From Candidatus Latescibacterota bacterium (lineage in GTDB: Bacteria > Latescibacterota > UBA2968): a DNA stretch of 64,000 nt. The position numbers and the translations under genes were made by a program. The stretch lies in the NCBI GenBank assembly GCA_965222605.1, contig OZ244960.1:3456001-3520000 (forward strand), written 5' to 3'. The notes below the pieces were generated by a model. It was not told the origin of the DNA. It did not search any database and was given only the letters and a program-made list of their open reading frames with translations. Below, piece after piece: positions 16,971 to 62,760 of the stretch (position 1 is the first letter of the stretch; every line of letters begins with the position of its first letter).

Positions 16971-16981
16971 TCAATTTCTAA

Positions 16982-17596
16982 TCTATCGATTCGAATGGCC
17001 GCATCACTGGCGCACCCACACTGAGTGGAGATTTCACGATCAGAGTGACCGTGGAAGATGCCCCTCCTGTCCGTGCTCCCTCCACACAAGTAAGTCGCTC
17101 TTTCTTCATGACGGTCAATGCACCTACAACTCCGACACTGACAATCGCAGAGATAGATGATATAACCGTCAAAATCAGTGGTGTGCAGACGAACAGCCCC
17201 ATTACCCCTATTCAGGTCTCAGCATCAGGAGGACAAACGCCATACTCCTATTCCCTGTCCAGCAACCCTGCCACAGGTTCTGGTCTGTCCATCAATGCAA
17301 CCAATGGTCAAATCACTGGCACACCCACACAGGCAGGCTCTTTTACACTAACCGTGAGTGTAACGGATAATGCAAGTACGACTGCAACTGAAAGTTTCTC
17401 AATGGCTGTCAGTCTGATAGGTGACTTTAATGGTGATGGTGTGGTCAATATATCAGATCATTTACTTTTTTTAGAAGTGTTTGGTCTAACCGAAGATGAC
17501 GATGGTTTTAATGCTGAGATGGATTTGAATGGCGATGGAACCATTGGCACGCCCGATTTTCTGATCTTTGTAAGTCACTTTGGCTCCTCTGCATAG
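16982..17596 (+). pseudogene. Start-less copy 7 of the giant gene 3' end
   Basis: Homology starts at TCTATCGATTCGAATGG, right after an 11-bp duplication TCAATTTCTAA at the C2 stop. Confidence 0.8.
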
Positions 17597-17640
17597 CTTT
17601 TTTCGTGCAGGAGACCTCTCTTTGTCAAGAGGAATACATC

Positions 17641-28358: not shown

Positions 28359-28376
28359 AGCTTCAATCCTTGTGTT

Positions 28377-30713: not shown

Positions 30714-30734
30714 AGATATGATCCTCCTGTCAAA

Positions 30735-33797: not shown

Positions 33798-33812
33798 GCT
33801 GAACCTCCGTTA

Positions 33813-34511
33813 CTATTTTGGGAAATACAACTTGAGCCGAACACCCAGGTTGAGTTTGTGAAATGGAAATGCCTCTTGTAAGCCCCAGGCTTCCAGGGGT
33901 CGCACATGGCCCCAGATGACGTGGTATTGTGCCCGAAGGTCAAATGCAAAATTCTGAGAGGCGAAATATTCGACGCCCAAACCGGCGTTCACGCCCAAAG
34001 CTGTGCGAACGTCTGATTCGGGACGCTGTATCAAATTGGTATCCAGCGTTCCACTTTGACCGGGATAAATTAATCCGCTGATTTCGTTGTTGTAGTGGTA
34101 AAAGCCCGATCCGATGACGAAGTACGGCGCGCCGCCACCCGATTCCAATTTTTCCCCTCCGCCGTTGAAATGGTAAATATAGTTGGCGGTTAGTGTAAAC
34201 CAGGTCATTTCTGAACTGGCGTTGGGACTGCCGTATTCCTGCAGGTCAACTGACCACAGAAAGCTGCGGTTTTCCAGTTCTCCCGAACCGTATTTGGCAT
34301 ATCGCGCGTCCAGTTCAAATGTCCAGGTCTGGTTGTTGATGCGCGAGATCGTTCCCCCGATGTCAATCCCACCCGAGGGAAACCATTGGTTCAACTTGAA
34401 CAGCGGCACATCGTATTGCCCGGTCACCCCAACAGACCAGGTGCCGTTCACTTCTGCCACTCCCGGCCCAATAAGGGCCAGACTTAATAACGCTGCTACA
34501 ATAAATCTCAT
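33813..34511 (-). CDS. Small outer-membrane beta-barrel protein (OmpA-transmembrane-like)
   Basis: Signal peptide, alternating beta-strand pattern, PYFVIGSG, GLGVEYF, terminal LKLYF. Confidence 0.8.
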   Translation of the reverse strand: MRFIVAALLSLALIGPGVAEVNGTWSVGVTGQYDVPLFKLNQWFPSGGIDIGGTISRINNQTWTFELDARYAKYGSGELENRSFLWSVDLQEYGSPNASSEMTWFTLTANYIYHFNGGGEKLESGGGAPYFVIGSGFYHYNNEISGLIYPGQSGTLDTNLIQRPESDVRTALGVNAGLGVEYFASQNFAFDLRAQYHVIWGHVRPLEAWGLQEAFPFHKLNLGVRLKLYFPK

Positions 34512-34560
34512 GCAATGACCTCCTCTTTGCGGTTTGTGTGACGATTTGCATGCTGCGGGA

Positions 34561-34710
34561 AAAACACATCTGTTCTCAAACTATAGGCATAACCTCCTTT
34601 CGGATCTCGGATGAAAGGATCAGGTGTATTAAAGCTGATGAACCACAACGATTATTTGTTTCAAAACGACTCATGTTAATACCCAAATTAAGGCGGGTCA
34701 ATCAAAAACG
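34561..34710 (-). promoter_or_regulatory. Promoter and conserved leader of operon copy 1
   Basis: Minus-strand TTGACC (34696-34701), 17 bp, TAACAT (34673-34678). Blocks are conserved with 46588-46753. Confidence 0.65.
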
Positions 34711-34757
34711 ATGGCTTGTAAAAGCTATTTTGCGATTCTTTTTGGAACCTCAGGCTC

Positions 34758-39226: not shown

Positions 39227-39239
39227 TTCCAATCCACAT

Positions 39240-39292
39240 AAAAAAATGAGACTCCGCCCGAAGCCGGACGGGCATCCGTTTCGAGCGGAGTC
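39240..39292 (-). terminator. Hairpin with U-tract between PorV-like and DUF6785-like genes (partial terminator or attenuator)
   Basis: Stem GACTCCGC...GCGGAGTC followed on the minus strand by a T7 run. Confidence 0.55.
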
Positions 39293-39333
39293 GTATATTC
39301 AGCAAGCTGGCGTTTGGCCCGGCTCAAGCCCTC

Positions 39334-40344
39334 CTAAAACGAACCCGAAAGGCTGATGCGCAAAGGCGGGTCGAACAAGTCGCCGAAGTCGCTGTAGGAA
39401 ATATCCAGGCCGATGTTGCGCCCTGAAAAATCCCCTTTCAGGCCAGCGCCAACGCTCCAGGATTCGCTGTCGTATTTGAATTTATATCCCGCTCGCAGCG
39501 CGACCATATTGGCGAGCCAAAATTCGCCGCCCAGGTTCCAGCGTTGCAACCGGTCGGTAAAATACGCCCCTTCAAATGCCACGGTCAATGAAGTCGGGTC
39601 GCCCAGGTTCCCGTATAACTCCATCGCTACGCCAAGGTGGAAGGTGAGGGGCATCTCCGATTTCTCACTCACGATTTCCTGCTCGCCTCCCAGATTTTTC
39701 AGATTCATTCCCAGGCGCAAGCTCCGAAATCCGGTGTACATCAGCGAGTTCACATTGATGGAAACCGCTTTAAGCGTAACATCCGCCAGTTTGGACTGGA
39801 TATACCGAATGGTGCCGCCGGCTGATAGCTTATCCGTCAACTGGTAGGCATACGTCGCGCCAATGGCCATATCGCCTACGGTCACGTTTCGCCCCGTGCC
39901 ATCGGGTTGCATTGTGGTGGTTTCCATAAATGTGGGCGGTTGGAAGTTCACGAGAGAGAGGCCCACCACGCCCCAACTGCCGGTATTATACACAACAGCA
40001 CCCGAGTAAAACGCGGAATCAACCAGCCATTTTGCGTAACCAAATGCATAACCGAACTTGTTGATTTTCGTGGTCCCGGCCGGGTTCCAAACAATGCCGT
40101 CCATGCCGTCGGCCACGGCTGTAAATGCATCTCCCATGCCCGATACGCGGGCATTTGTAGATACTTTTAAGAATTGGAATGTCGATGGCTTGATCTTGTT
40201 CCGGCCGTCCAGGGTCAGAAAATCATCCTCTGCATTGGGAAATAAGGACTGACCGATTGCAGGTTGCGCTGTGCAGACCGCCAAAAACGCGATTGCGAGA
40301 AGCGGTATGCAACTTCGACAGAGGTTCAACAACATCCGTTTCAT
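39334..40344 (-). CDS. PorV/PorQ-family outer-membrane beta-barrel
   Basis: FQFLKVSTNARVSGMGDAFTAV...WNPAG. Close paralog of 27381..28358. Confidence 0.85.
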   Translation of the reverse strand: MKRMLLNLCRSCIPLLAIAFLAVCTAQPAIGQSLFPNAEDDFLTLDGRNKIKPSTFQFLKVSTNARVSGMGDAFTAVADGMDGIVWNPAGTTKINKFGYAFGYAKWLVDSAFYSGAVVYNTGSWGVVGLSLVNFQPPTFMETTTMQPDGTGRNVTVGDMAIGATYAYQLTDKLSAGGTIRYIQSKLADVTLKAVSINVNSLMYTGFRSLRLGMNLKNLGGEQEIVSEKSEMPLTFHLGVAMELYGNLGDPTSLTVAFEGAYFTDRLQRWNLGGEFWLANMVALRAGYKFKYDSESWSVGAGLKGDFSGRNIGLDISYSDFGDLFDPPLRISLSGSF

Positions 40345-40377
40345 AGCTGTTTATCCTTTTTTTGAGGTCCAAAACCA

Positions 40378-42729
40378 CTACCGGTGAATCACAAATGCGC
40401 CTTTGGATTTTTTGCCCATGCTGGCTGGCATTAGAGACTCGACCACAAAGAAATAAAGGGCCGAGGTCGCCTCGCCGGTCAAAAAGCGATCTTTTAGCAG
40501 CCAGGCCGCCTCGCCAGCGTTGGGATCGTCGTGATCGATCACCTGAATCAGGTCGCCGGATACGGTAAAAATGGAAATCCGCGATTTGCGGGGGACGCCC
40601 AGGAAACGCAGCTTTTTCGATCCCTGATAGTTGGCTTCTTCCAGACTTAGATCAAACGGATTGGGCACCACTACTACGGGGTTGGACAGCGCGTCTGCAT
40701 CGTCATTTGCCGCCAAAATTGGGGTTCCCGGCACAACCATGCGTTGCTCGGCAGCCGACCAACCGCCCTCCAGCCCATTCTCCAGGTGTGCCCGAACAGT
40801 TGGGGGGAGATCGTTGATGGTCATTCCAGTGGAATTGGACCAGTTGGTCTTGGGTGTGGCATAGGATCTCACGCTATAACCAAACGAAAATCCAGCCAGA
40901 GACTCTTCATCTACCCAGGAGTATTTCCCTCCGCTGTCAGACCCTTTCGGAATATCGGCTTTGAGGATCCACGGCCCGGTCTCTTGCCAGATTGACCGGT
41001 AAACCCGATATCCCGCAACATCTGCCATGCCGTAGTCGGGATGGATCGCATTATCAGCGGTATTGGGCCACTCCAGTACGATCTTTGCCTGCGCGTTGCT
41101 GGTCTGGAAAAACTCCACATCCGGTGGGGAGTCGGGAACATCGAACCCGGCGTTATACACAAATTGAGCGTGATCGAGGTGTCGAAGCATAGCTTCTTCG
41201 CCCCGGGACAGTCTCTGCTTCCGTTCATCATCGCCCACATTTCCAAAGTTGAACGACCATTGAATCATATCGTGCGGATAGCCGGTTTCCGTGCTCGAGG
41301 CCATATCTGCGGCTGAACCGAATCCATAGACCACCACCACTTTGGCCTTCTCGCCGGGCGCGAGGTTATAAGGTCCCCAGATCTGGTCGCTCCACTGCAT
41401 CTGTTCCGACGTCGGGTCGGGTGTGTTAGGCCCTGTGAAGATGTCGTATTGATCTGTCATACTCACCGATCCGCGCGTTGGATCGTCGATATTGCGCCGC
41501 GCGTGTGCGGTGTACCAATGCGAAAGCGGATCGCCCTGCGGATCTACAAAGCCCTCTGCTGCGTCTGCTGCGTTGAAGGTGTGACTCGGCCCAGTGTTGC
41601 GGAATGCCAGCGGAGCCATAAACTGATAGGCCAGCGAAATTGGCGTTCCTTCGGGCCGTGCCGTGCTGTTTGGAAAGTCGCCGCCGCCGTTTTCGAGGTC
41701 TCTGTAATACGGGTCGCCCGTATCTTCTTCAAAGCTGGCGTTGGTATTTCCATCCCACTGGTAGTTGATGAATTTTCCCTGGAACTGAGAGGCAGATAAT
41801 CCACTGAGGGGATTCGGCGTAAAATTGGGTGACTCGGTATATTTGTACCAGTCGTCCATTCCCCCCGGCGCGCGCCGATACCGCACCAACCCACCTTCGT
41901 GGCCCCAGCGATACGATGTGCCGTGGTTGTTGACATAAAATGTGTTCATCACCCCGAAATACGTATCGTTCAACTGCTTGTTACCGCGGTTTTCGAACTC
42001 GAGTTCGAGGATAAAGAAATCGTCAAAATCCTGATGGCTATAGGAGTGCGCTTTTCGCGTGACCCACACATCGTGCCTGGTTGACCACTGTGAAATGTGG
42101 ATCTCTTCTCCCGCCGTCTGCACGGGTGGATAAATGCTGTAATTGAAGTTGTGAATCTCGTAGGGGCGGCTCTGTGTGCGATCCACACTTTGGGGCGATG
42201 CGCCGCTCCACCAGTTGGATTTTATCATCCCGGGATTCACACCCCGGTCGGGCACGACGGTCGGGATGCCCCAGGTCGCCTCTTTCTGGTTTTGAATATC
42301 GTAAATTTGTGGTTCGACATCTTCGGTGGGCGTGCGCGGTCCCGTTACCGAGACAAATTTTTCACCGTCAACATGGGTCAACACCAGCACGCCTTCTCCG
42401 GCCGAGTGCATATTCGCTTCCGCTTTCTGCTCGGAGTGTCCCCAGCCCTTGCTGCCCCAGTATTCTTCGAACTCCTCTGTCCCCAGCAGGGCATACAGCG
42501 CATAAGTATTGCCCGGGTAGGACATCCGCATCATCACGCGACCTGGCGTCACGTGGTAATGCATGCCCGAGGTGCCCCAGTTTGTAAATGAGATCCAAAC
42601 CAGGGAGCGGGTCATGTGTCGGGCTGTTGAGTAGGGAACTTGTGCCGCGGATTGCAACGCGCCGACAAGCACCAGCACCACAGATAGCAGGCCAAGTCCC
42701 ATCCATCTTTTTACGTGATCACTGAACAT
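40378..42729 (-). CDS. Secreted protein with FN3-like and T9SS-CTD/FlgD-like C-terminal domain
   Basis: Full-length paralog of 28377..30713. VVVVPNPF...ISIFTVSGDL. Confidence 0.75.
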   Translation of the reverse strand: MFSDHVKRWMGLGLLSVVLVLVGALQSAAQVPYSTARHMTRSLVWISFTNWGTSGMHYHVTPGRVMMRMSYPGNTYALYALLGTEEFEEYWGSKGWGHSEQKAEANMHSAGEGVLVLTHVDGEKFVSVTGPRTPTEDVEPQIYDIQNQKEATWGIPTVVPDRGVNPGMIKSNWWSGASPQSVDRTQSRPYEIHNFNYSIYPPVQTAGEEIHISQWSTRHDVWVTRKAHSYSHQDFDDFFILELEFENRGNKQLNDTYFGVMNTFYVNNHGTSYRWGHEGGLVRYRRAPGGMDDWYKYTESPNFTPNPLSGLSASQFQGKFINYQWDGNTNASFEEDTGDPYYRDLENGGGDFPNSTARPEGTPISLAYQFMAPLAFRNTGPSHTFNAADAAEGFVDPQGDPLSHWYTAHARRNIDDPTRGSVSMTDQYDIFTGPNTPDPTSEQMQWSDQIWGPYNLAPGEKAKVVVVYGFGSAADMASSTETGYPHDMIQWSFNFGNVGDDERKQRLSRGEEAMLRHLDHAQFVYNAGFDVPDSPPDVEFFQTSNAQAKIVLEWPNTADNAIHPDYGMADVAGYRVYRSIWQETGPWILKADIPKGSDSGGKYSWVDEESLAGFSFGYSVRSYATPKTNWSNSTGMTINDLPPTVRAHLENGLEGGWSAAEQRMVVPGTPILAANDDADALSNPVVVVPNPFDLSLEEANYQGSKKLRFLGVPRKSRISIFTVSGDLIQVIDHDDPNAGEAAWLLKDRFLTGEATSALYFFVVESLMPASMGKKSKGAFVIHR

Positions 42730-42751
42730 GGAGAATATACCTCCTGATTAT

Positions 42752-42786
42752 TGGCCTGACCGCGCAACCTGTGTGCGGTCAGGCCA
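42752..42786. other. Intercistronic hairpin 3' of the TBDR gene (possible mRNA stabiliser)
   Basis: TGGCCTGACCGC...GCGGTCAGGCCA 12-bp stem without a U-tract. Confidence 0.55.
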
Positions 42787-42800
42787 TCGACTAAGTGTGA

Positions 42801-45800
42801 TTAGAACTTGAACCGCGCACCCAGCACAATTGACCGGGGACGTCCCAAACCGTCGTTGTACCGCGTCAGTTCAGCTATATCGCCAAATTGATCGAACTTA
42901 CCATCGCCCGGCGGCGGCAGAAGCAGTCCGTACTGAATCGTGCGGAAACCGGTCGATAGGTCATCCCGTTGCCCGAAGAAATTTCGCACCTCGACAAAGG
43001 CGGTTGCCAATGCGGTCTCGCCGATGTTGAAATCCTTTTCTGCACTCACATCGGCCACGGTGGTCACCGGTCTGTTTCGACGCTGCGCGGGACCAATCGG
43101 GGGCGAGTAGTTCCAGGGGCTTCCGGTCTGCATCTGCCAGATCAGCGTTGCCCGAAGGCCGGCCAGTGGCACAATGTGGTAATCTGGCGGCGAAGAAAAG
43201 AGGAGTTGAATACTGGCAAAATTGCGCCGATCCAGGCCACCATCCAGACTCGGGATGCTGTAAGAGCCGACATTGAATGCATAGAGTCCGGGCACAATTA
43301 CCACTGGCTGTTCCCAGAACCCGCTGAACTTGGGCACTTTATTATCCGCCAATTTCTTGTAGCCCCGGGCGATGTCGTCTGCGAGGGCGGCCAGCGACGC
43401 CCGTTCGGCTGCATCGGGCGTGCGGGGAAATTCCTGCCCGGTGTTGTCAAATGTCACGCCGGCAAAGTACAGGTCGCTTTTCACAAACTCGCCCGTCGCC
43501 ACATAAGTCCAGTCCTGAGCGCGTCTGCCGCCCGAGTGCGATTTGGCCCAGTTCAAATTGTAGGCCACGTTGAATGCGATCATATCTTTGAATTTTTTCG
43601 AGAACGACAACTCGAACCCGCGCGAGGTGGAAAACCGCCGGTTCCACTGTCCGTGGTCATACGCCGAGTTTTTCCCCCGAAACGGATCGTGGACGTAATT
43701 GTCCGAGTCGCCCTGCCTCCCTTCCTGATCTTTATAGAAGGATGTGAGGGCTATGACGTACGGTCCAGCAAAGTTCCACTCGAAACCCACTTCAAACTGC
43801 GTGGTCTTTTCGGGCTTTACATTGACATTGCCGAAATCCGCGGCCAGCGGATAGGTCAGCGCGTTCATGATTTCATTCTGTTCGATTACCCCGTCGCCAT
43901 CCACATCTCGATCTGCACCCGAGGCTGAGAACAACCGCGTGTAGAGGTTCTGCATGTCAAAAAACTGGTGGAACTGTCCTGTGAAGAACCGGATGAACGA
44001 GCGGTCTGTAATCGGATGAGAAATTCCGATGCGAGGGCTGAATGCCTTCTGTGTCGGTGAATCCACGATGGGCACGTTTCGCCAGCGCGTCAGCGAGTTA
44101 TAGTGGAACCAGAGCGGGTGGTCCATCGCGCGGCCAAAAGAATCGCCCGGGTCGAGGAGATCCGCTCGGAAACCCAGGTTGACTACCAGGCCCTCAAATT
44201 CCATTTTGTCCTGAATGTATGCCGCATAGGTGATCGGATTGAAGCCTTCCATCCCGATAATGGGGTCGCCCTTGCCCACCAGACGGATTTCGCGGTTGCG
44301 AGAGGTTTCAAAGATCTCTTCGTGCTGGTAGATGTCGTAGCGAATGATCTCAAATCCCGCCTTTGCGAAATGCCCTTTGTGCAACTGGCTGCTCAGGTCG
44401 GCTTTCAAAAGCACGCGGTTTCGACGGGCGTACTGAAATGCGTGGATATTCCTATCGACGAAAAATCCCTGCGCGTCCCGCGTTACATCTTCGGTCGCTG
44501 CCGGCACATCGGACGTATCCTGCGCTGTTCGCTGATAGGAAATCCGAATATCGTAAAATGTTTTCGACGAAAGCGTGTGTGTGAACACCCCGTACACAAC
44601 CTGATCAGTCCTGGGGTTTTTGCCCGCACCATTGCTGGACAGGAACAAATTATTGCCAGTTTGTCCAATGCCGCGAATGCCGCCAGCCGGTGTATCGGTG
44701 GTTTCAAAGCCGGTGTTAATGTCCCGACCGCCGTCGTGGAAGATGTTTCTATAGACCCATGTTCCACCCGCCTTGAACTTCATATTGCCCGAAGGGCGGT
44801 ATGTGATATTGCCCGAGGAATTGAAATTTTTTGGCTCTGAATCGGTTGGATTGGGATATACGGGCGCTCTTCGGGAGGTGGTGCCGCCCGTGAAAAATCC
44901 GATGTTCGGGGTGATCGGTCCCGAGATATTGGCCTCGAAGAGGTGTCCGAGCTTTTCGTCGTAATTGGTGCGCTTCCCGGAATGAATGCCGCTGTAATCG
45001 GCGCGGCCTTCCAGCAAGGGGCTGTCATAGACACTGCTACCCCAGTGCTTTCGCCCCGGCAGGGTCAAGCGGTACTCGCCCAATCCGGAATACCGGTCTT
45101 TATTTTCGCGGCTTACCAGGCTTATTACACCGCCCTGTGCATTCCCATATTCGGCATTCATGCCGCCGTTATAGACCGACACTTCCTGAATGGCGCCCCG
45201 AGACACGCTGTTGACTTGCGACATCGTGACATTATCCAGACCGTCGTTATTCGCCAGCCGAATGCCATCGATTTCAACCATGACCTCGTTGTTGCCGCGC
45301 CGTCCGCCGACCCGGCTCGCGCGAATCCGCAGGTTGCCGTCCAGCGAAACACCGGGTTGGAGCATAATGACTTCGGCTGTAGAGCGCGCCAGTGGCACAT
45401 TCTCCACATCTTCGGTGCTCACCACGTACCGCGTCACGGTCTTATCTACTTCTACGGGAGGGCGCTCGGCCACCACCACCAATTCACCCAGTTCGACAGC
45501 GGCTTCCTGAAGTCTGAACTCCACGGTGGTCGTCAGGTCCGCTCGCACCGCAATATTTTGCAAGATCTCTGCATTGTATCCCACCAGAGACGCTTCCAAC
45601 TCGTAGGCCCCTGGATCTACCGACAAAATTAAAAAATAGCCTTCTGAGTCGGCTGTTGCGCCGCGTTGCGTGCCTTTTATCAGCACGTTGGCGCCCGGCA
45701 ACGGCTCGCCCGAGGCGTCTTTGACCGTGCCGTTGATTTTACCTACTGTACCGGCCATGCCCTCTGAGGGCCAGAAACCAAATAGTGCCAGCAGAACACA

Positions 45801-45824
45801 GGCCAGACGTAATTTGTACCTCAT
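42801..45824 (-). CDS. TonB-dependent receptor with N-terminal carboxypeptidase-regulatory-like domain
   Basis: Paralog of 30735..33797. GGMNAEYGNAQGGVI. Terminal RFKF. Confidence 0.92.
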   Translation of the reverse strand: MRYKLRLACVLLALFGFWPSEGMAGTVGKINGTVKDASGEPLPGANVLIKGTQRGATADSEGYFLILSVDPGAYELEASLVGYNAEILQNIAVRADLTTTVEFRLQEAAVELGELVVVAERPPVEVDKTVTRYVVSTEDVENVPLARSTAEVIMLQPGVSLDGNLRIRASRVGGRRGNNEVMVEIDGIRLANNDGLDNVTMSQVNSVSRGAIQEVSVYNGGMNAEYGNAQGGVISLVSRENKDRYSGLGEYRLTLPGRKHWGSSVYDSPLLEGRADYSGIHSGKRTNYDEKLGHLFEANISGPITPNIGFFTGGTTSRRAPVYPNPTDSEPKNFNSSGNITYRPSGNMKFKAGGTWVYRNIFHDGGRDINTGFETTDTPAGGIRGIGQTGNNLFLSSNGAGKNPRTDQVVYGVFTHTLSSKTFYDIRISYQRTAQDTSDVPAATEDVTRDAQGFFVDRNIHAFQYARRNRVLLKADLSSQLHKGHFAKAGFEIIRYDIYQHEEIFETSRNREIRLVGKGDPIIGMEGFNPITYAAYIQDKMEFEGLVVNLGFRADLLDPGDSFGRAMDHPLWFHYNSLTRWRNVPIVDSPTQKAFSPRIGISHPITDRSFIRFFTGQFHQFFDMQNLYTRLFSASGADRDVDGDGVIEQNEIMNALTYPLAADFGNVNVKPEKTTQFEVGFEWNFAGPYVIALTSFYKDQEGRQGDSDNYVHDPFRGKNSAYDHGQWNRRFSTSRGFELSFSKKFKDMIAFNVAYNLNWAKSHSGGRRAQDWTYVATGEFVKSDLYFAGVTFDNTGQEFPRTPDAAERASLAALADDIARGYKKLADNKVPKFSGFWEQPVVIVPGLYAFNVGSYSIPSLDGGLDRRNFASIQLLFSSPPDYHIVPLAGLRATLIWQMQTGSPWNYSPPIGPAQRRNRPVTTVADVSAEKDFNIGETALATAFVEVRNFFGQRDDLSTGFRTIQYGLLLPPPGDGKFDQFGDIAELTRYNDGLGRPRSIVLGARFKF

Positions 45825-45841
45825 ATCTCAATCTCCTTTGC

Positions 45842-46555
45842 TCAATTGGCGAAATAGAACTTGATCCGCGCGCCGCCGTTAAACTTGTGAAAGGGGTATG
45901 CCTTCTCCAGCCCCCAGGCTTCCATGGATCGCGTCTCTCCCCAGATAATATGGTATTGTCCGCGAATATCGATGGCGACGGACTGCGAGGCAAAATACTC
46001 GATACCGAATCCCAAACTCACGCCGGGTTCTGTGCGGACATCTTCTGCGGGTCGCAACAAAACGTTCGGGTCAATGGTCGTGCCACTCTGCCCCGGATAG
46101 ATCAGCCCACTCATCTTGTTTTTAAAGTGGTAGAAGCCCGCGCCAATGAGGAGATACGGCGCTCCTCCACCCGATTCCATCTTTTCACCACCCCTGTTGA
46201 AGTGATAAAGAAAGTTCGCTGATAGGCTTGCCCACACCATCTCTGAGTTGGCATTTGGGCTGTTGTAGCTTTGTCCATCGCCTCCAAAGAGAAAGCTCCT
46301 TTTCTCTAAATCTCCGGAACTATATTTGGTATATTGACCGTCCAGTTCAAACGTCCAGGTGGCGTTCTTGACGTTTACAATGGACGCCCCCACGTTGACC
46401 CCGCCGGAAGGAAACCAGCTATTCAGCGCGAATAGTGGCATTTCGTAATTGGCCACAATGCCCATTCCCCATGTGCCGTCAACTTCCGACTGACCTGTAC
46501 CCGGTATGGAAAACAACAGCGTCAGGCACAAAAAACCAGCTTTTCCATATTTCAT
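45842..46555 (-). CDS. Small outer-membrane beta-barrel protein
   Basis: GGAGGAG RBS before ATG 46555 (MKYGKAG). Paralog of 33813..34511. Confidence 0.8.
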   Translation of the reverse strand: MKYGKAGFLCLTLLFSIPGTGQSEVDGTWGMGIVANYEMPLFALNSWFPSGGVNVGASIVNVKNATWTFELDGQYTKYSSGDLEKRSFLFGGDGQSYNSPNANSEMVWASLSANFLYHFNRGGEKMESGGGAPYLLIGAGFYHFKNKMSGLIYPGQSGTTIDPNVLLRPAEDVRTEPGVSLGFGIEYFASQSVAIDIRGQYHIIWGETRSMEAWGLEKAYPFHKFNGGARIKFYFAN

Positions 46556-46587
46556 ACGCACTCCTCCTTTGCTGTTTACTGCATTTG

Positions 46588-46753
46588 AAAAACACATCTA
46601 TCTTGAAGCCATAGGCATAACCCCTTTCGGACCGCGGATGAAATGTGGTCTTAGTTGGACACCTTTTCAGGCTGATGAGCCATAACGATTATTATGACTC
46701 ATTTCAACTTTGACTCATGTTAATATTCAAATTAAGGCGGGTCAATCAAAAAC
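46588..46753 (-). promoter_or_regulatory. Promoter and conserved leader of operon copy 2
   Basis: Minus-strand TTGACC (46740-46745), 17 bp, TAACAT (46717-46722). Same blocks as 34561-34710. Confidence 0.65.
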
Positions 46754-50770: not shown

Positions 50771-51071
50771 ATTATGATGATTGCGAACTGAGGTATATAG
50801 ATAACGAAAATTGTGGTCTGTGACAAGAAAAAATTCTACGGGATTATACAGGGCCTTAAGCGTATTACACGCTTATATGGATGCTTTAGATTCATAAAAC
50901 CAATGACCGAAACGCCGAACGCCGCAGGACATTGTTGTTTATTTTTCTTGAATTGAATTTTGGTTATGTACTATTTTTGGAGTAAATTTTTGGGACCTAT
51001 ACCTTTTTAGAGGCGTTTCTAATTGAGATAGAAACCGTATTGGACTGTTTTTTAAAAAAAGGAAAATAATT

Positions 51072-54599: not shown

Positions 54600-54641
54600 A
54601 AAAAAAAAATAAGCCCCGCAATACGGGGCTTATTTTTTTTT
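54600..54641. terminator. Bidirectional intrinsic terminator between convergent genes
   Basis: A10-TAAGCCCCG-CAATA-CGGGGCTTA-T9. The recombinase stop codon lies in one arm. Confidence 0.85.
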
Positions 54642-55619
54642 ACATCCATATCGCAACCGTGCTACAGCACCAGTGCCAGCGAGTTGAGCGCGTGCATAAT
54701 GGGCAGGCATAGATGTGTCGCGCCATCGCCCCGCTATTTGCATCTCGACGATCGATGCACCCGCTGTTGCAAGGGACTGCGCCGATCCAATACGGAGCGA
54801 GTGCCCTGAGAACCGTCCAGAGATTCCTGTAGCGGCGGTACGCTGTTTTACGATGTTCCTGATTGCGCGGGTTGTCAGTCGCCCAGTTCCCAGATGATCG
54901 CCACGGCGCACGCGGCGAAAGAGGGGGCCATCGTCAATTTGGGCGGCGTTCAGCCAAGCCGTCACTGCCGTTGCTGTTGTCGGTCCAATGTACAGGATGC
55001 TGCTGCGCCCTTCCTGGTCGGTTTTAGACCATCGCACGGTAATGCGGGCACTGCCGTCCTTGACGTGTAAAAAATCTTCGACATCGAGGGCAACGCATTC
55101 AGACACGCGCAGGAGTGCGTCAGACATGACGGCGATGATGGCCGCATCCCGAAGGCCAGCGAGGGTGTGATCACTTTGAGCGACGCGTACCACTCTGTCC
55201 GCGTCATGCCAGCGCAGGCCATCCATTTGCCCCCGTCCGCGGTCTCGTCCCTGGCGTCGTATGCCTGCTAATACACGCTGGGTGGCTGGACCAATGGGAT
55301 CAGCATGGCCCTGGTGTTTCACGCGAAACCGGATTGCGCCCACGATTTGTGTACAGGTAGCTGGGCTGGTTCCTACTTCATACCGCACCGTCAGATATTC
55401 GGCGATGAGTGTATCGCTTTCCGCTCGGTCGTTGCGAAATGTATCCCAGGCATAAAGCGCAGACCGATAAGCTCTAATGGTAGCAGGAGCGAGTGATGCA
55501 CGCGCGAGTTCGGCCGCGGGCATTGAGAGTGTCTGAGCGGTGTGACCTGCCTGCATAGAACATCTGCAGGTGGGCAGGTGCATGGACTGGGATGTGGATG
55601 TTTTAATCATTGTGGCCAT
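54630..55619 (-). CDS. Cre-like tyrosine site-specific recombinase
   Basis: Catalytic set R (LLRVSE), K (WSKTDQEG), HxxR (GHSLRIG), W in place of the second His (AGRW) and Y (MPAHYAR), as in Cre. N-terminal APATIRAY core-binding helix. Start uncertain. Confidence 0.9.
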   Translation of the reverse strand: MATMIKTSTSQSMHLPTCRCSMQAGHTAQTLSMPAAELARASLAPATIRAYRSALYAWDTFRNDRAESDTLIAEYLTVRYEVGTSPATCTQIVGAIRFRVKHQGHADPIGPATQRVLAGIRRQGRDRGRGQMDGLRWHDADRVVRVAQSDHTLAGLRDAAIIAVMSDALLRVSECVALDVEDFLHVKDGSARITVRWSKTDQEGRSSILYIGPTTATAVTAWLNAAQIDDGPLFRRVRRGDHLGTGRLTTRAIRNIVKQRTAATGISGRFSGHSLRIGSAQSLATAGASIVEMQIAGRWRDTSMPAHYARAQLAGTGAVARLRYGCKKK

Positions 55620-55734
55620 TTTTTTCGGTATTGTGCAAATCAGTGGAGCAGGTGGTTTTTATTAGACGCTTACGCTATCCGATTTAGATTCATCAATTAG
55701 ACACGCGATAGCCTTTTTTTAGACTTGTGACCTG

Positions 55735-55768
55735 TTTATTTCCGATAATCCAACTTATCGGAAATAAA
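55735..55768. other. 34-bp loxP-shaped recombination site (candidate target of the adjacent recombinase)
   Basis: TTTATTTCCGATAA-TCCAAC-TTATCGGAAATAAA: perfect 14-bp inverted arms around an asymmetric 6-bp core (equivalently 13-8-13). Confidence 0.85.
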
Positions 55769-55976
55769 GGGCAATGAAGTGTTGCGGCTCTATTTGGTAT
55801 TTGACCAGATGAAATAGCCGAAATGCCAAATATCGCAGGATATTGTTGTTTGTACCCTGGCTTCTTTTTTTATCTCGGCAATTTTTTTTAAAATTTTAAT
55901 AGATTAAAATTTAAATTGTTTAAAAATAATATGTTATGAGCGAAATTTACATATCGCATATTTTGGTCTATAACAC

Positions 55977-56005
55977 TTGACAGACTTTGAGGCACATATT
56001 AAATT
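55977..56005 (+). promoter_or_regulatory. Sigma70 promoter inside the putative invertible segment, facing the TBDR operon
   Basis: TTGACA (55977-55982), 17 bp, TAAATT (56000-56005). Confidence 0.75.
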
Positions 56006-56033
56006 GGTCAATCGTTGGATTATCGGAAATTAT
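56000..56033. other. Second, inverted recombination site (intact outer arm + same core, degenerate inner arm overlapping the -10 box)
   Basis: GTTGGATTATCGGAAAT (56014-56030) is the exact reverse complement of 55738-55754. Confidence 0.75.
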
Positions 56034-56267
56034 AGTTAATAATGAAGAAACCGACATCATAGATCGAAAGGAGGTGGCGCATTTAAGCCTGTTTTTGCAA
56101 TCAGAGGGAGGGAATTAAGAAGGAGGTGATGTTTAAGGGCTTATCGATATTGTTTTTTAGTTGGTAGTTTCTCCTTATCAGATGGAGAAATTAGCTTGTG
56201 GGAATGAGCCAGGTGAGCCTTTCCCGTATCTTTCCCAAAGCCGGGGAAGAAACCAAAGGAGGAGTTT

Positions 56268-59200
56268 ATGTACCGTTTGAGAGCTGGGTTTATAGCCTTG
56301 CTTGCCATTGCTCTGGGGTTTGGGCTGGCGTATCAGGCCGATGCACAGACCACCACGGGTAAAATTGCGGGTCGCATCACAGATGCTGGTGGCGACCCTC
56401 TGCCCGGGGCTAACGTAGTTCTTGTAGGCACCAGAATGGGAGCCACAGCAGATGTCAATGGCGATTACTTTATTATTCAGGTTTCGCCAGGCGTGTACGA
56501 AGTTCAGGCATCGCTTGTGGGATATCACACGGTGAGCAAGACGGATGTGGTGGTGAGTATTGACCGCACATCCCCTGTGAATTTTTCCCTGACAGAATCG
56601 ACCGTTGAATTGAGTGAGATCACGGTTGTGGCTGAGCGTCCGCCGGTTGAGTTGGAAGTTTCTTATGCTCAGACGATTATGAAGGCAAGTGAAGTTCGCG
56701 AAGCACCCACAGGTCCCCGCCTGCGCGACGCGTTTGCCACGCAGGTAGGTGTGGATAGCGATGACTGGGGTTTGACCATTCGCGGCGCAAGTGAAGAAGA
56801 GATGTTGTATACAATGGACGGTGTGGGTATGAAAGACAACCGCAATAACCGTCCGTATTCTTCTTTTAGCAAAACAAATCTGGCAGAAGTTCAGATTTTG
56901 ACAGGTGGCTTTAGTGCTGAATATGGCGATGCGCGCAGTGGCGTTGTCAATATTGTGACCCGTGAGCCTCGTCAGTTTACGATCAGTGCAGATGCGCGTT
57001 ATAATCCCGCTGGTCGCAAGCACTTTGGTCCCGACGTATATAGCTCGGACAATTGGTGGGATATTGGTCGTTTTGAGAGCGATGGCGCTACAGCAGATCG
57101 CAATGGCGATGGTGTGCCTGACTTTAAGGGTTGGACGCAGGAGTTCAGTGATCGCGGCGGTCCGGCAGGCGAATGGACTGCGGGTATTTACGATCTCCCG
57201 ATAACGACTGTTGCTCAAGCCAAAGGGATATGGGCATGGCAGCATCGCAACTTTGAATTAGAAGGGAATAATGGCTTTAATGCCAATGCTGCTGATCGCG
57301 AATCCGATTATCACTACGATGTGACGGTTGGCACACCGGTGATCAGCGATAAATTGTCGGTGATGTTGACCAATCAGCGCGAGCGTACGGCTTATACTTA
57401 CGACTTGTCCAAAACGTCGTATCGCGACAACCTGGCGCAGGCCAAACTGACGTTTACACCAACTGCCACAACAAAACTATCGCTGGGTTATTTGCGTGGT
57501 TGGGCAGATGGTACAAAAACAGGCGACTTTACGGGAACCTTTGTCAGATCGCAGGTGGAAGCCTCACGCCGTTTTGATGATGTTCAGATGTTTGCGCCGG
57601 GGTCTCAAGCCAATCAAGAGACCATTGACCGCAATTATTATACTCTGAATTGGTCGCACACATTGTCACCTAAGACATTTTACAATATCACTGCGCGTTA
57701 TGGCAGAACGGATTGGGAAGCCACATGGCAGAAACCTCAAGCCGTGGGTATTCCCGCGGCAGCGGTTTATCCCGATGGTCGGGTTGAAGAGATTACCGAA
57801 TCCGGCGTTGCATCTGCGCAATCAGCAGGTGCTGTGATTCTGGATGAAGCGCCTGTGGGTTGGAACTATGCCAACCGCCGCGTCGATATTCTGGGTATTT
57901 ACCGTTTGCGCGGTGGCGGTGGTGCCAGCCGTTCAGCGGACTGGTCTTATATCAAAGAGACGGATCTGACTTTTGATATTACCAGCCAAATGACACCGCA
58001 TCATCAGGTCAAAGCCGGTATTCAAGCGCATACGTTTTTCCTGCGTGAATATCGCGGTTATACCTCCACACTGCCAGACCGCCCCGAAGGTTGGGAAAAC
58101 GACAATCCGGCAGATATCGTGGCGACGCAAACAGCCAACTTGCACAATTATTGGGTGAAGACGCCGTGGTATGGTGGTTTCTTCGTGCAAGATCGTATGG
58201 AGTATCGCCAGATCGTAGTCAATGCGGGGCTGAGACTGGATTTTCACCGTCCGGACAAGTGGTTTGATCTGGTAGGACAGCCGCATGCAGAATACCTGGG
58301 ATCGAATGCCGAATTGTTATACGAAAATCGACGCTCGGTTCGCGCGCCGACCAAGTGGGCGTGGAGTCCGCGTTTTGGCGTATCTCACCCAACAACGGCG
58401 ACTTCCAAGCTCTTTTTTAACTACGGTCACTTCTATCAGGTGCCGACGACAGTAGAACTCTACCGTGCGCAGTCCGGTGCGGGTGAGCCATTGGAGAACT
58501 TTGGCAACACATGGGTAGAAATGCCTCAGACCATCGCTTATGAGCTTGGTTTTGAGAAGAGTTTTGAAGGCAAGTATCTGGCTTCGGGCACGGTGTATTT
58601 TAAGGACATCGACAAAGAACTCGAACCGAGTACGAGTTATTATCCCGAAAACAGTACTGGCAGGCGCACGCGGTGGACAACCCAGGGACGGATCAAGGAT
58701 GTGCGCGGTTATGAGCTTGCGTTTAAGAAATCGCGCGGTCAGTTCTTGACGGGTTTTATTTCTTATGATTACCGCCAGGAGCGCAGCAAGCGGATTGGGT
58801 GGGACCGCATCTATGACCAGAATACGGTTTCCACGCCTTCCCGCCTGATTATTGAAGGTAGTGCCAATGCCGCTAATCCACAATTTAAGCCGCGTCCAAT
58901 CTGGAAGTTGGGTTTGAACTTCCGAACGCCGCTGGATTACGGCGCCGAACAGCGCATGTTGAAGGGCGGTTGGGAAGCCAATTTGTTCTTCCGCCGAGAA
59001 GGCGGTTGGTGGATGAATCACAATCCGACTAATGATTCTGCGCTGCAGAATGTGTTGAATGTGCAGTGGACAGATAGCAACATGACAGATCTGCGGATTT
59101 CAAAAGCCTTTGATACCAGGGGCGCGCCGCTGTTGTATTTGGAGATTCACAATATTTTCAATTTCAAGAACTTCAACAATCTGCGCGACTACGATGGCGA

Positions 59201-59411
59201 GGTCTGGGACTATCCAGGCACAAATGACGATGCCAAAGCCGACGCGTATATGGAGCGGCTCGGGTGGACTGTTGATGCCAGCGGCAAACTTCAGGAAGGT
59301 AGCCGTCCGGGTTCCGATGTCGATCTGGACAATTTCCCGGAAACGCGCCGTCCTTATATCGTCTATCTGGACCGTCGAGACATCACGTTTGGTTTGCGAT
59401 TCTCGTTCTGA
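56268..59411 (+). CDS. TonB-dependent receptor with N-terminal carboxypeptidase-regulatory-like domain
   Basis: AGGAGG RBS. TTGKIAGRITD...LPGANV, GGFSAEYGDARSGVVNI, QDRMEY, SPRFGVSHP, terminal LRFSF. Confidence 0.92.
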   Translation: MYRLRAGFIALLAIALGFGLAYQADAQTTTGKIAGRITDAGGDPLPGANVVLVGTRMGATADVNGDYFIIQVSPGVYEVQASLVGYHTVSKTDVVVSIDRTSPVNFSLTESTVELSEITVVAERPPVELEVSYAQTIMKASEVREAPTGPRLRDAFATQVGVDSDDWGLTIRGASEEEMLYTMDGVGMKDNRNNRPYSSFSKTNLAEVQILTGGFSAEYGDARSGVVNIVTREPRQFTISADARYNPAGRKHFGPDVYSSDNWWDIGRFESDGATADRNGDGVPDFKGWTQEFSDRGGPAGEWTAGIYDLPITTVAQAKGIWAWQHRNFELEGNNGFNANAADRESDYHYDVTVGTPVISDKLSVMLTNQRERTAYTYDLSKTSYRDNLAQAKLTFTPTATTKLSLGYLRGWADGTKTGDFTGTFVRSQVEASRRFDDVQMFAPGSQANQETIDRNYYTLNWSHTLSPKTFYNITARYGRTDWEATWQKPQAVGIPAAAVYPDGRVEEITESGVASAQSAGAVILDEAPVGWNYANRRVDILGIYRLRGGGGASRSADWSYIKETDLTFDITSQMTPHHQVKAGIQAHTFFLREYRGYTSTLPDRPEGWENDNPADIVATQTANLHNYWVKTPWYGGFFVQDRMEYRQIVVNAGLRLDFHRPDKWFDLVGQPHAEYLGSNAELLYENRRSVRAPTKWAWSPRFGVSHPTTATSKLFFNYGHFYQVPTTVELYRAQSGAGEPLENFGNTWVEMPQTIAYELGFEKSFEGKYLASGTVYFKDIDKELEPSTSYYPENSTGRRTRWTTQGRIKDVRGYELAFKKSRGQFLTGFISYDYRQERSKRIGWDRIYDQNTVSTPSRLIIEGSANAANPQFKPRPIWKLGLNFRTPLDYGAEQRMLKGGWEANLFFRREGGWWMNHNPTNDSALQNVLNVQWTDSNMTDLRISKAFDTRGAPLLYLEIHNIFNFKNFNNLRDYDGEVWDYPGTNDDAKADAYMERLGWTVDASGKLQEGSRPGSDVDLDNFPETRRPYIVYLDRRDITFGLRFSF

Positions 59412-59501: not shown

Positions 59502-61619
59502 ATGAAACGTTTTGTATTTGTGCTGATGGCTATGCTGATGGCTGGCAGTGCTTATGCACAGGGTCACGAGATCGGCACCCTGTGGAGCTCGGGTCGTCTG
59601 ATTTGGCCCGGCGGTCTCGAAACAGGTCTTACCGATCCGGATATCGGTTATCGCGTTGGAAATTCGGGTTTTGCCGTGGTAGGGCTATATTCGAAGTTTA
59701 ATGTGCCCGGTTATTACGAAGGCGGCCAACATCTGGTAAATACCACGCAAAGCCCCTGGTGCAATGACCTGCTGGACGACCTCGCTGATTTTTCGTCTTC
59801 GAAGTTGGGGGGCACAGAGACGCGATTGAACAAGCCCAATCCGAAGTTTTTTCGCATCAATCCACCAACGTTGATTCAGGATGGCAAAGAGATATTGAAT
59901 CCCAATTGGCGTTTGTTCCCCGAAGACGACGATGCCGTGCGGTCGGACCTGGGGGCTGATCTTATGATCAGCAGCACGCTTGTAAACTCCGAAGGCTTGC
60001 GCATTGTGCGCGAGACGTATTCGTGGGCAAACCAGGACGCCGACGATATGATCTTTGAAGTTACGACGATTACGTATCCGGAAAATCCGCATGTGGTTGA
60101 TCTCAGAGCAGGCGAGCGCGGCATTGCTGCAAGCCCGGAAACGGCGCAGAAAAACCCGTCTTATGACAATTTCCACGTTGGGTTGAACTACTATTTGCAG
60201 CGCGGTGGTTCAGGTCCTGCTGGTGGCGCGCATATCACTATTAATCCCGAAGATGGAGGTCGCGCTTACGATGCTGGCTTGCTCGCTGGCGGTATATGGG
60301 ATGAGGTGAATTACTGGGATGATGATGAAAAGCTGCTCTATATCCACGATGGCGACGACAGCGATAAGTTGGGGTATCGCCCCGATGGCGATGACCGCGG
60401 CGAACCTGCGCCCGCTACTGGCGATTTGCTCGATGGGGTGCGCGCTGCCAATATCAGTTCGGGTGAGTTTATGGAATCGCACTACAAAGGGCGCGTGTTT
60501 TTGCACGTGGATAAGACGCCGACAAACGATCCCAATGTGTTGAGTGAGAACTGGCTGGAAGACATGTCTGATCCCGAAAATGCACAGCCGCGTCAGGTGC
60601 GCTGGGTGCCGGGTGAAGTGTGGACGAGCACGCGCACAGCTAATCGCAAGACCGTGCATGATTTTTATGTGCAGCCGGGTACAACACGCGATGAACGGAT
60701 TTCAGATTCCGATCCCGACCAGCCAGGGTATGTGACGACAGAGCAGATCTATCAGTGGCTGACGACATTTGGCCCCTGGGACTTGAAGCTCGGTCAAAGC
60801 ATTCACATTGTATCGGCAGTGATTGTCGCTGGTCCGTCTGAAGCAGAGAACAAGCGCGTGGGTAAGGCATGGGCAGATGGCACAATTGGTTTTGTTCAAA
60901 AAGAAGCTTTCCTCGACAGTGGGTTAGATTCGTTGAAGGCGACTGTGGCAGTTGCGCGTCAAGCCTGGGCAAATCGCACGGGCACGATGCCCCGATTGCC
61001 CGCTGCGCCCAATTGGCCTGCTTCGGTCACGCTGACCTCTGGTCCCGATCGCAACGAGTTGAGTTGGGATGCTGTTTCTGGTGCGGTCAAGTATAATGTG
61101 TATCGCTACGCGGGTCGTCATACAGAAGTGCCCGAACTGATTGGATCACCAACGGGCACCACCTTTAACGATGAGACTTCGATTCGCGGTACGAGATATT
61201 ATTATTCCGTGACAGCCGTTGATGCCAATGGCCTGGAGAGCAGTCGGTTTGCCTCGCGCACCGAAGCAGAGGGTGTGAGTCCCTTCCGCGGTCCTGCCAA
61301 TGACATTACGCAGGTTCGCATTGTGCCCAATCCATATCAGGTGCAGGGCGGGCAACTCGACGATGGGGGTTATAACTATCAGGGTCAGCCCCACAAGCTC
61401 CAGTTTGTGAATCTGCCGGGACAGGCTGTTATCCACATTTTCACCATTACCGGTGATCTCGTGACGCGCCTTGACCACACTTCTGGCTCTGGCGATGAGT
61501 CATGGGATTTGATGACTTCGGATAACAACCAGTTTCTGGTCAGTGGGATCTACTTTGCTCATATTGAAGATACGGCAACTGGTGCCAAGCACATCGAACG
61601 CTTTGTCGTGGTCAGGTAA
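59502..61619 (+). CDS. Secreted protein with FN3 and T9SS-CTD/FlgD-like C-terminal domain
   Basis: Signal peptide. LSWDAVSGAVKYNVYR...YYYSVTAVD. VRIVPNPY...FVNLPG.AVIHIFTITGDLV...SGIYFAHI..FVVVR. Confidence 0.78.
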   Translation: MKRFVFVLMAMLMAGSAYAQGHEIGTLWSSGRLIWPGGLETGLTDPDIGYRVGNSGFAVVGLYSKFNVPGYYEGGQHLVNTTQSPWCNDLLDDLADFSSSKLGGTETRLNKPNPKFFRINPPTLIQDGKEILNPNWRLFPEDDDAVRSDLGADLMISSTLVNSEGLRIVRETYSWANQDADDMIFEVTTITYPENPHVVDLRAGERGIAASPETAQKNPSYDNFHVGLNYYLQRGGSGPAGGAHITINPEDGGRAYDAGLLAGGIWDEVNYWDDDEKLLYIHDGDDSDKLGYRPDGDDRGEPAPATGDLLDGVRAANISSGEFMESHYKGRVFLHVDKTPTNDPNVLSENWLEDMSDPENAQPRQVRWVPGEVWTSTRTANRKTVHDFYVQPGTTRDERISDSDPDQPGYVTTEQIYQWLTTFGPWDLKLGQSIHIVSAVIVAGPSEAENKRVGKAWADGTIGFVQKEAFLDSGLDSLKATVAVARQAWANRTGTMPRLPAAPNWPASVTLTSGPDRNELSWDAVSGAVKYNVYRYAGRHTEVPELIGSPTGTTFNDETSIRGTRYYYSVTAVDANGLESSRFASRTEAEGVSPFRGPANDITQVRIVPNPYQVQGGQLDDGGYNYQGQPHKLQFVNLPGQAVIHIFTITGDLVTRLDHTSGSGDESWDLMTSDNNQFLVSGIYFAHIEDTATGAKHIERFVVVR

Positions 61620-61677: not shown

Positions 61678-62760
61678 GTGAAATACACAAAACTGGCCCT
61701 CATGATGCTCGCGCTGTCTTTGGGGCTTCTGGCCACAACAGCACAAGCGCAGCTGCGTGTACCAGATAAAATTTTGCCAGAGAATCACGAAGAGAATAAT
61801 CCCGTATTTATCAAAGTTGCTCAGGCTGGCTTTACATTTTTGAAGCTGCCGACCAATGCGCGTTCAGCAGCCCTTGCAGGTTCGGGTACAGGTATAATCG
61901 GTTCTGCGTCTGGCGTGTTTACCAATCCTGCAACGCTGGCGTTTTTCGATGGTCGTGAGGCATTTTTTACTTATGTTTCATGGATTGCCGATACCAAAAG
62001 CCAGGTCGCTGGTGCTGCTTTCAATATTCCAGGCCGCGGTACCTTTGGTGTGGGATTTGTGACTTATGATGCCGGTACGTTCAATGGCACAGCCATTGAT
62101 CCAAACCCCGCAGGTGCGGGGTTTACAGAGACGGGGACGTTCACAACGTCTAACTACGCGCTCTCTGCGGCTTATGGCATGAAGATTACCGATCGTTTTT
62201 CGGTGGGTGCCAATGTGAAGATTGCCAGTCAAAATTTGGGCACTGGCAGTGTGTTGATCGGTGGTAATCGCACAACTGTCGATAATTCCAAGACAGCATT
62301 TGCTGTGGATCTGGGTACGTATTTCAATACGGGCTTCCGCAATACGATTCTGGCGATGACGGTGCAAAACTACAGCTTTGAACAAACCTATCAGCGCGAG
62401 GCATTTGAGTTGCCGCGCAATATTCGTTTGGGGCTGCTGGTGGATGTGTTGTCCCTGTCGGGCAGTATCCCGGTTCCCCATCACCTGGATCTGGCATTGG
62501 ATGTGACGAATCCCGTGGATTTTGACGAGCAGGTCCTGGTTGGTCTGGAATACACATTTCAAGCCGCCGGTAGTCCGATTGGCTTTTCTGGTCGTGCGGG
62601 TTATAAGACCAATCACGATACAGAGAGCTATGCCTTTGGCGGTGGTCTGAAGTATTTGACGGAAACCGGCAGGGGTGTTAAGCTCGATTATGCCTTTAAG
62701 GCATTTGACAGCAATTTCTTCTCTTCTGTACATGTGATTTCAGGGGCTATTGATTTTTAG
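61678..62760 (+). CDS. PorV/PorQ-family outer-membrane beta-barrel
   Basis: AQAGFTFLKLPTNARSAALA...FTNPATLA, GRAGY, LDYAF, terminal F. Confidence 0.85.
   Translation: MKYTKLALMMLALSLGLLATTAQAQLRVPDKILPENHEENNPVFIKVAQAGFTFLKLPTNARSAALAGSGTGIIGSASGVFTNPATLAFFDGREAFFTYVSWIADTKSQVAGAAFNIPGRGTFGVGFVTYDAGTFNGTAIDPNPAGAGFTETGTFTTSNYALSAAYGMKITDRFSVGANVKIASQNLGTGSVLIGGNRTTVDNSKTAFAVDLGTYFNTGFRNTILAMTVQNYSFEQTYQREAFELPRNIRLGLLVDVLSLSGSIPVPHHLDLALDVTNPVDFDEQVLVGLEYTFQAAGSPIGFSGRAGYKTNHDTESYAFGGGLKYLTETGRGVKLDYAFKAFDSNFFSSVHVISGAIDF

Follow-up and report, generated by a model that had tools for sequence, protein, structure and literature searches.

A Cre-type recombinase beside a putative invertible promoter upstream of a TonB-dependent receptor operon in a Latescibacterota bacterium

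Introduction

The best-known cases of phase variation through an inverting promoter come from gut bacteria and pathogens, with enzymes of the FimB, RecV, Tsr or serine type. The RecV switches of C. difficile mostly act via terminators or leader RNA, and the repeats of FimB and FimE are not known to be lox-like palindromes. In fimS of E. coli, a short promoter-only segment (296 bp without its repeats) is inverted by adjoining tyrosine recombinases (PMC5903667). At the RecV switches (flgB, cwpV and others), which serve surface control, a tyrosine recombinase acts on sites made of two arms round a 6-bp spacer, the spacers of the two sites being identical and inverted (PMC12282940, PMC5903667). 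A 'spacer code' has been proposed for these switches (PMC12282940). In the host-associated bacterium Bacteroides fragilis, the invertible regions of Tsr and Mpi combine a local invertase with genes for TonB-dependent and outer-membrane proteins, among them outer-surface and SusC/SusD proteins (PMC12632263, PMC11868660). Invertible promoters ahead of TonB-dependent receptor genes have already been reported in gut bacteria and, according to the accessible text of the same paper, the inverton promoter is in general unable to regulate nearby invertases, one case being a possible exception (PMC11892184).

Cre-type enzymes are known from another context. Cre/loxP and the mined pairs YR9/lox9, YR6/lox6, YR1/lox1, VCre and SCre share their fold, six catalytic residues and a 13-8-13 or 14-6-14 site with related arms, placed at most 1 kb from the gene (PMC10250229, PMC3082901). 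Strand exchange by such enzymes requires identical spacers (PMC11260471), a rule also proposed for the RecV switches (PMC12282940), and cross-recombination occurs among similar sites (PMC10250229). The prediction table of the latter paper has six rows with a CCGATAA core, and the accessible part of its supplement holds no Latescibacter or Poribacter term.

Here we describe a locus found in the window, that is, in the whole stretch of 64,000 nucleotides analysed from a Candidatus Latescibacterota bacterium. It has the fold, catalytic residues and site architecture of the Cre-type pairs. It also resembles fimS in its short promoter-only segment beside a tyrosine recombinase gene, the RecV switches in its identical, inverted 6-bp spacers and its surface genes, and the B. 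fragilis regions in its local recombinase and TonB-dependent receptor; B. fragilis, however, belongs to another phylum and uses another promoter type, and the likeness to Tsr is drawn from descriptions of those regions. Whereas RecV serves several switches from a distance as a master recombinase, each switch considered here has a Cre-type enzyme of two domains beside it and to itself, and it is the promoter that would flip between cargo and recombinase. Unlike in the gut invertons, as far as the accessible text of PMC11892184 describes them, one orientation faces the invertase. Known Cre-type members are described, in the accessible parts of the papers cited above, with single sites on phages and plasmids, whereas this locus has a pair of inverted sites, of which the distal one is one-armed, round a chromosomal promoter. 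The Tn4651-family enzymes TnpS/TnpT, with their rst site (PMC7157771), are also close: among the named comparators, the TnpS-like gene of plasmid pND6-1 gave the highest BLAST score, and the palindrome upstream of that gene shares the core CGATAA-N6-TTATCG with the site in the window. In contrast to TnpS/TnpT-rst, no TnpT or transposase is present here, the divergent gene encodes a TonB receptor, and there is a second, spacer-matched inverted site. In the accessible text of the open papers searched, neither a Cre-type promoter invertase nor such a switch in Latescibacterota or sponge symbionts was found; GTDB-wide inverton tables (PMC11602134) could list the locus.

Results

The recombinase and the proximal site

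An earlier note on this DNA had described the palindrome at 55735-55768 as a loxP-like 13-8-13 site with an asymmetric spacer, about 115 bp upstream of a Cre-type recombinase gene. This geometry holds. As the outer two 'spacer' bases pair, the exact form is 14-6-14: the 14-nt arms (55735-55748 and 55755-55768) form a perfect inverted repeat round an asymmetric 6-nt core, TCCAAC (spacer 55749-55754). The measured distance from the 34-mer to the 329-aa open reading frame on the minus strand (54630-55619) is 115 nt, the site being upstream, and the ATG of the recombinase stands 129 nt beyond the spacer.

The protein, the proposed invertase, matches the Pfam family Phage_integrase. The R-K-HxxR-W-Y set announced in the earlier note is present as R171, K199, H273, R276, W299 and Y308, which align to the Cre catalytic residues and, across 114 homologues, show conservation of 90% or more. 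In a PDB sequence search, 17 of 17 matches were Cre or Tre. The AF2 model (pLDDT 92.5) likewise had only Cre or Tre as top Foldseek matches, with TM values of 0.75-0.78; its TM value was 0.77 with Cre, as compared to 0.47 with XerA, 0.39 with XerD and 0.64 with XerH. The length of 329 aa fits the two-domain Cre fold (300-400 aa). By BLAST, the protein shares 28% identity with P1 Cre and 34% with the TnpS-like protein of pND6-1, whereas FimB and FimE, enzymes of about 200 aa, gave no significant match (E 0.34 and 4.9). The phylogeny that the earlier note had suggested, a tree of 38 rows, places the recombinase on the Cre/TnpS side: Cre, the TnpS-like protein and the clade of the window enzyme are split from FimB/FimE and two Xer-like proteins of the host with support 100/99, its placement relative to Cre being uncertain and long branches being flagged. 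Against the NCBIfam XerC and XerD models the recombinase scored 54 and 43 bits, the cut-offs being about 330. The Xer-like genes of the genome, so called solely from inspection and from their place in the tree, are separate (C1:1883983 and C1:2656227). Overall, judged by sequence and predicted fold, the enzyme is of Cre type and stands outside the FimB group. Among six orthologues in the genus, dN/dS was 0.12-0.26, indicating an enzyme under purifying selection with its catalytic set intact.

Two elements border the gene. In its leader (minus strand, 55660-55700), a block of about 20 nt is invariant in 6/6 aligned genus loci, including the divergent G001; an accessory-protein site or an RNA element is possible. 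Between the recombinase gene and a convergent GWxTD gene lies a hairpin with 18-nt perfect arms and flanking A/T runs (54601-54641), which is likely to be a two-way terminator, although the terminator scan did not list it. An Rfam scan gave only sub-threshold matches, on this hairpin, and none in the switch or the leader. The genes flanking recombinase and site are the GWxTD/TPR gene and the TonB receptor gene, unlike the divergent tnpT and Tn3-family transposon setting of a TnpS/TnpT-rst system.

Taken alone, the palindrome is unremarkable, its size class being common in the genome: 88 perfect palindromes with arms of at least 13 nt were counted, most of them terminator-like by eye. A genome search gave no further full copy of the 34-mer and no direct-repeat partner. 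To call the sequence unrelated to loxP, as had been done, is an overstatement. By eye, 8/13 positions of the right arm agree with the loxP arm that opens the P1 record, and the two arms agree with lox9 at 9/13 and 10/13 and with lox6 at 10/13 and 10/13 (PMC10250229, supplement). Since lox9 (YR9) and lox6 (YR6) are experimentally active, the likeness of the arms suggests that orthogonality is not assured and that cross-reaction is plausible. The resemblance of the TTAT...AAAT arm to the XerD arm of dif is real, the right arm agreeing at 8/11 positions with an 11-nt XerD-arm motif.

A second, inverted site and a predicted promoter

An exact 17-nt inverted copy, consisting of an 11-nt arm and the same 6-nt spacer, was found at 56014-56030, 259 nt from the palindrome. 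This copy, missed in the earlier note, exceeds chance: the 17-nt sequence has two matches in the window, as compared to a mean of 0.18 in shuffled sequences, and 0/100 shuffles reached two. It belongs to a proposed distal crossover site, inverted and promoter-adjacent (56000-56033, minus strand), whose outer arm (56020-56030) is identical to the proximal arm and whose spacer (56014-56019) reads as the proximal one in reverse complement. The inner arm is degenerate, with 1/7 core bases, and overlaps the -10 box of a predicted sigma70-type promoter (55977-56005, plus strand). This promoter, TTGACA-17-TAAATT, matches the consensus at 10/12 positions, the best of the region, and its -10 box ends 8 nt from the distal spacer. 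It lies between both sites and is aimed at the TonB receptor operon. From spacer to spacer, the proposed invertible segment (55749-56019) measures 271 bp, with 31% GC inside. The anatomy is that of an invertible promoter, with two inverted sites carrying identical spacers, the distal one one-armed, and a promoter inside aimed at a gene. Of the enzyme-target pair announced earlier, the Cre-type enzyme stands and the 34-mer is very probably the crossover site of the adjoining recombinase; the site is not a lone one, having an inverted partner with a promoter between. A 39-nt imperfect direct repeat (79%), with one copy inside the segment (55813-55851) and the other upstream of the GWxTD gene (50902-50940), has just these two copies genome-wide at up to 9 mismatches.

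The first gene proposed to be controlled encodes a TonB-dependent outer-membrane receptor with an N-terminal carboxypeptidase-regulatory-like domain by Pfam (56268-59411, plus strand); its match to the SusC/RagA model is far under the cut-off. Two further plus-strand genes probably belong to the receptor operon, one encoding a 705-aa protein without family match (59502-61619) and the other a PorV/PorQ-family barrel, above the cut-off of NCBIfam PorV_fam (61678-62760). The 263-nt receptor leader contains, at 56060-56180, two strong Shine-Dalgarno-like stretches, one of them ahead of a 12-codon open reading frame that is frameshifted in some relatives and has no Rfam match. Elsewhere in the window, two more cassettes of a TonB receptor, a protein of about 780 aa and a PorV-like protein, named by resemblance, lie on the minus strand at 27381-46597 with no adjoining recombinase. 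At 5830-18417, downstream of a gene for a 1936-aa FN3/Ig/dockerin protein, a tandem array has about six units of a secreted-looking protein of about 285 aa (no Pfam match) alternating with Ig-like fragments.

No strand-changing joint, as expected of the flipped form, was found at this locus in four contig sets (X1, X2, X3 and X5), and one X1 contig of depth about 80 runs unbroken through the distal site. Because contigs drop rare variants, this means that the flipped form is at most a minority. Strains without the recombinase co-occur in the contig sets. RNA runs labelled sponge metagenome contain 11-26% of the sequence words, and sponge association of the host is likely.

Relatives in the genus

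The receptor promoter was examined in 20 of the 21 genomes of the genus, and 17 loci were anchored. An intact recombinase with both sites was found in five: the window, G004, G006, G014 and G015. Both proximal arms are kept in the latter four, with one change in G014. The spacers are mirrored at both ends in each case, reading TCCAAC in the window, ATCAAC in G004 and ATCCAC in G014, G006 and G015 (also in G020, by eye). The inner segments of four loci compared are 79-88% identical, and dS among the orthologues is 0.18-0.39; the spacers have changed in step at least twice since these loci split. The promoter ends 6-9 nt from the spacer in the genus orthologues.

Decay is also seen. In G020, most of the gene and the outer proximal arm are gone, with the deletion junction at the spacer edge. 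In G001, the arms are altered concordantly, the spacers match at only 4/6 positions (by eye) and K199 is replaced by R. In G015, an IS4-type transposase gene stands between the recombinase gene and the site; the insertion point (locus L032) is the outer edge of the proximal site, where a 9-bp duplication is apparent, the rest of the switch being intact. Nine of the 17 anchored loci are without recombinase or proximal site, and eight of these nine retain the distal arm within one mismatch, so that this arm may be retained for promoter reasons. A portion of the inner segment persists in the enzyme-less G017, pointing to a deletion as the cause of the loss. In G011, the upstream region is different.

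All seven genus loci with a gene or remnant have the orientation of the window (ON), and their distal inner arms match 0-4 of 7 core bases. A pattern search of the phylum for the promoter-side junction gave hits in 9/168 genomes, all in the genus and already known, none of them OFF.

Spacer covariation and orientation in the sister clade

A sister clade of recombinases, about 50% identical to the window enzyme and present in up to 10 copies per genome, shares its CCGATAA core arm and its promoter geometry, the -10 box ending 8 nt from the spacer in most loci, with sites 158-179 nt apart. The core arm recurs in 37 loci other than that of the window. Spacer identity was tested blind, the sites being chosen by arm score only, in 38 loci (6 of the genus, 32 of the sister clade). 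Left out were L034 (G001), the own-genome paralogue and L008, whose arms differ, L053/L130, and the truncated or tandem second copies L118, L119, L131, L137 and L140. The spacers were exact reverse complements (6/6) in 37/38 loci, with 20 distinct spacer sequences; the single miss, L054 (G020), is without its outer proximal arm. Permutation of the spacers gave a mean of 2.3 matches and a maximum of 10 in 100,000, and 0/300 random genome windows matched. These figures overstate independence, since the loci are kin. Within single genomes, the spacers matched in 6/6 loci (p 0.005) and 8/8 loci (p 3e-5). Spacers are reused among paralogous switches in one genome and are therefore not a unique code.

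Orientation was counted on pairs picked by spacer identity, a choice that would be circular for covariation and was used for orientation only. Among the 32 sister loci, the promoter faces the recombinase in 28 and the cargo gene in 3, with 1 unassigned. In these three (L110, L115 and L127), the inner segment corresponds to that of a paralogue taken in reverse complement, switching at the spacers; the reversed versus direct inner identities are 0.95 versus 0.59, 0.89 versus 0.63 and 0.82 versus 0.56, respectively. The flanks are colinear, at 0.88-0.95 in the L110 and L115 pairs and only 0.57-0.62 in the L127 pair. Both segment orientations therefore exist in the sister clade, and the opposite one is known only from there, among paralogues.

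The cargo beyond the switches is mostly of surface or outer-membrane type (TonB receptors, cadherin/Calx-beta/FN3 proteins, RTX repeats), with lipobox-like N-termini in 12/21 loci by eye. Two sister-clade switches (L039 and L126) stand ahead of a PAP2/vanadium-haloperoxidase-like gene, not a surface adhesin. Where sister-clade recombinases are in tandem (L129/L137, L138, L139/L140), the site pair is found upstream of the first copy only.

The paralogue and other branches

A 47% paralogue in the same genome (C1:2737704; region G000:C1:2737410-2738642, outside the window) has its own matched inverted site pair, with arms that differ from those of the window. Its promoter faces its recombinase, the -10 box overlapping the spacer, and the paralogue is divergent from a dockerin/cadherin/FN3 gene followed by a transposase-like open reading frame. 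Its orthologue in G009 (L008) has matched spacers as well, different from those in the window genome.

Poribacteria are sponge symbionts. Their loci and those of other Latescibacterota families were tested separately from the 38-locus set, with a negative result: within the 1 kb upstream that was scanned, in which larger segments would be missed, an inverted repeat was found in 3/31 loci, versus 2/33 downstream controls. Several of these loci have a lone palindrome with no second copy. The two-site pattern is therefore not above background in these groups, and the switch appears to be a use made of the enzyme by some branches only. A search of viral contigs gave no relative, and metagenome contigs gave five loci, none of them close and none with a clear two-site pattern.

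Discussion

From comparative sequence evidence, we regard it as probable that the locus consists of a local Cre-type invertase and a 271-bp invertible promoter, assembled in the ON state, and that the switch is active or weakly active. The recombinase would bind the two head-to-head sites (55735-55768 and 56000-56033), and strand exchange over their identical 6-bp cores would invert the segment between them. In the ON state the promoter, if active, would read into the operon of the TonB receptor, the 705-aa protein and PorV; in the flipped, OFF state it would read into the recombinase gene. Invertase would then be made in larger amounts in OFF cells, which would tend to go back to ON. Such a self-resetting loop could possibly explain the ON bias in the genus. 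With such a loop, the state that faces the recombinase should be the rarer one, whereas 28 of 31 assignable sister loci face the recombinase, so that the feedback is not general. In the sister clade the promoter-adjacent site has two nearly intact arms, and the enzyme may therefore repress its own transcription there. For the proposed switch, the main biochemical point would be the efficiency with which a full site recombines with a one-armed site.

That the switch still works can be doubted. It may be a former one, now effectively locked ON, in which the one-armed distal site no longer recombines meaningfully and the module is disappearing from the genus. The uniform ON orientation of the seven genus loci, their degenerate distal inner arms, the lack of any OFF contig, the loss in 9/17 loci, the deletion at the spacer edge in G020, the IS4-type insertion in G015 and the mismatched spacers of G001 would all fit. 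However, concordant spacer changes, at least two over a dS of 0.18-0.39, and purifying selection on an enzyme with an intact catalytic set argue against such a locked state, which we hold to be unlikely. Slightly less likely still is that the 34-mer serves a captured mobile module as its single resolution site, of lox/rst type, or acts as an operator for repression or looping at the recombinase and receptor promoters, the second copy being for binding only. The closest named relatives are indeed plasmid and transposon enzymes with single palindromes (the TnpS-like protein and Cre), Poribacteria and other relatives have lone palindromes, and the distal arm overlaps the promoter. Yet binding or looping would conserve the arms only, while the spacers change in step, being reverse complements in 37/38 loci with 20 sequences; for this reason we read the enzyme as an invertase. 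Opposite orientations exist in the sister clade, there is no direct-repeat partner in the genome, and the locus has neither a TnpT-like divergent gene nor transposon ends. With an inverted partner of matching spacer and a promoter between the two, the natural role is most likely promoter inversion, not lone-site resolution.

A chance hairpin or terminator-like palindrome might be considered, given the 88 palindromes of similar length class, but the exact inverted partner, the conservation with covariation and the recurrence of the core arm in 37 other loci make this very improbable. The lead towards dif, that is, a dif or dif-like site acted on by host XerC/XerD, came from the 8/11 likeness of the right arm and fails on both place and enzyme. 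A dif site is expected at the replication terminus. Cumulative GC skew has its minimum at 3.04 Mb and its maximum at 0.04 Mb; the site, at 3.51 Mb, is about 0.47 Mb away from the former and far from the latter. It is symmetric, and the adjoining enzyme, far below the XerC/XerD cut-offs, groups with Cre/TnpS. A search with the XerD-arm motif did not locate the true dif of the genome. We consider a dif role the most improbable of all these explanations, and even taken together dif and chance remain very improbable.

More tentatively, and with slightly less than even confidence, we propose that several uncultured lineages have co-opted a resolvase of the Cre/TnpS clade, together with its lox-type site, as a portable promoter-flip module of one gene. 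The promoter would alternate between the invertase gene and a surface-protein gene, so that each switch would set its own return rate, and at the present locus arm loss under the -10 box would have given a slow, ON-biased switch for the TonB receptor operon.

The value of the pair as a tool is modest, since it adds one more candidate to about 500 already predicted (PMC10250229). For tool mining, the locus carries a warning: single-palindrome searches near Cre-like genes can miss the natural partner site. In addition, the 20 natural spacers, with their matched site pairs, offer ready material for testing which spacers and half-sites are tolerated. The logic of the switch is already known from fimS, Bacteroides and RecV; the new part would be a Cre-type enzyme as promoter invertase. 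If confirmed, the present reading would mean that a Cre-type enzyme natively serves in this role, and it would provide a bet-hedging mechanism, open to testing, by which uncultured bacteria that probably live with sponges could vary their outer-membrane receptors and surface proteins. If the co-option reading is true, surface phase variation would extend to the Latescibacterota, with natural Cre-type enzymes that pair a full site with a one-armed one.
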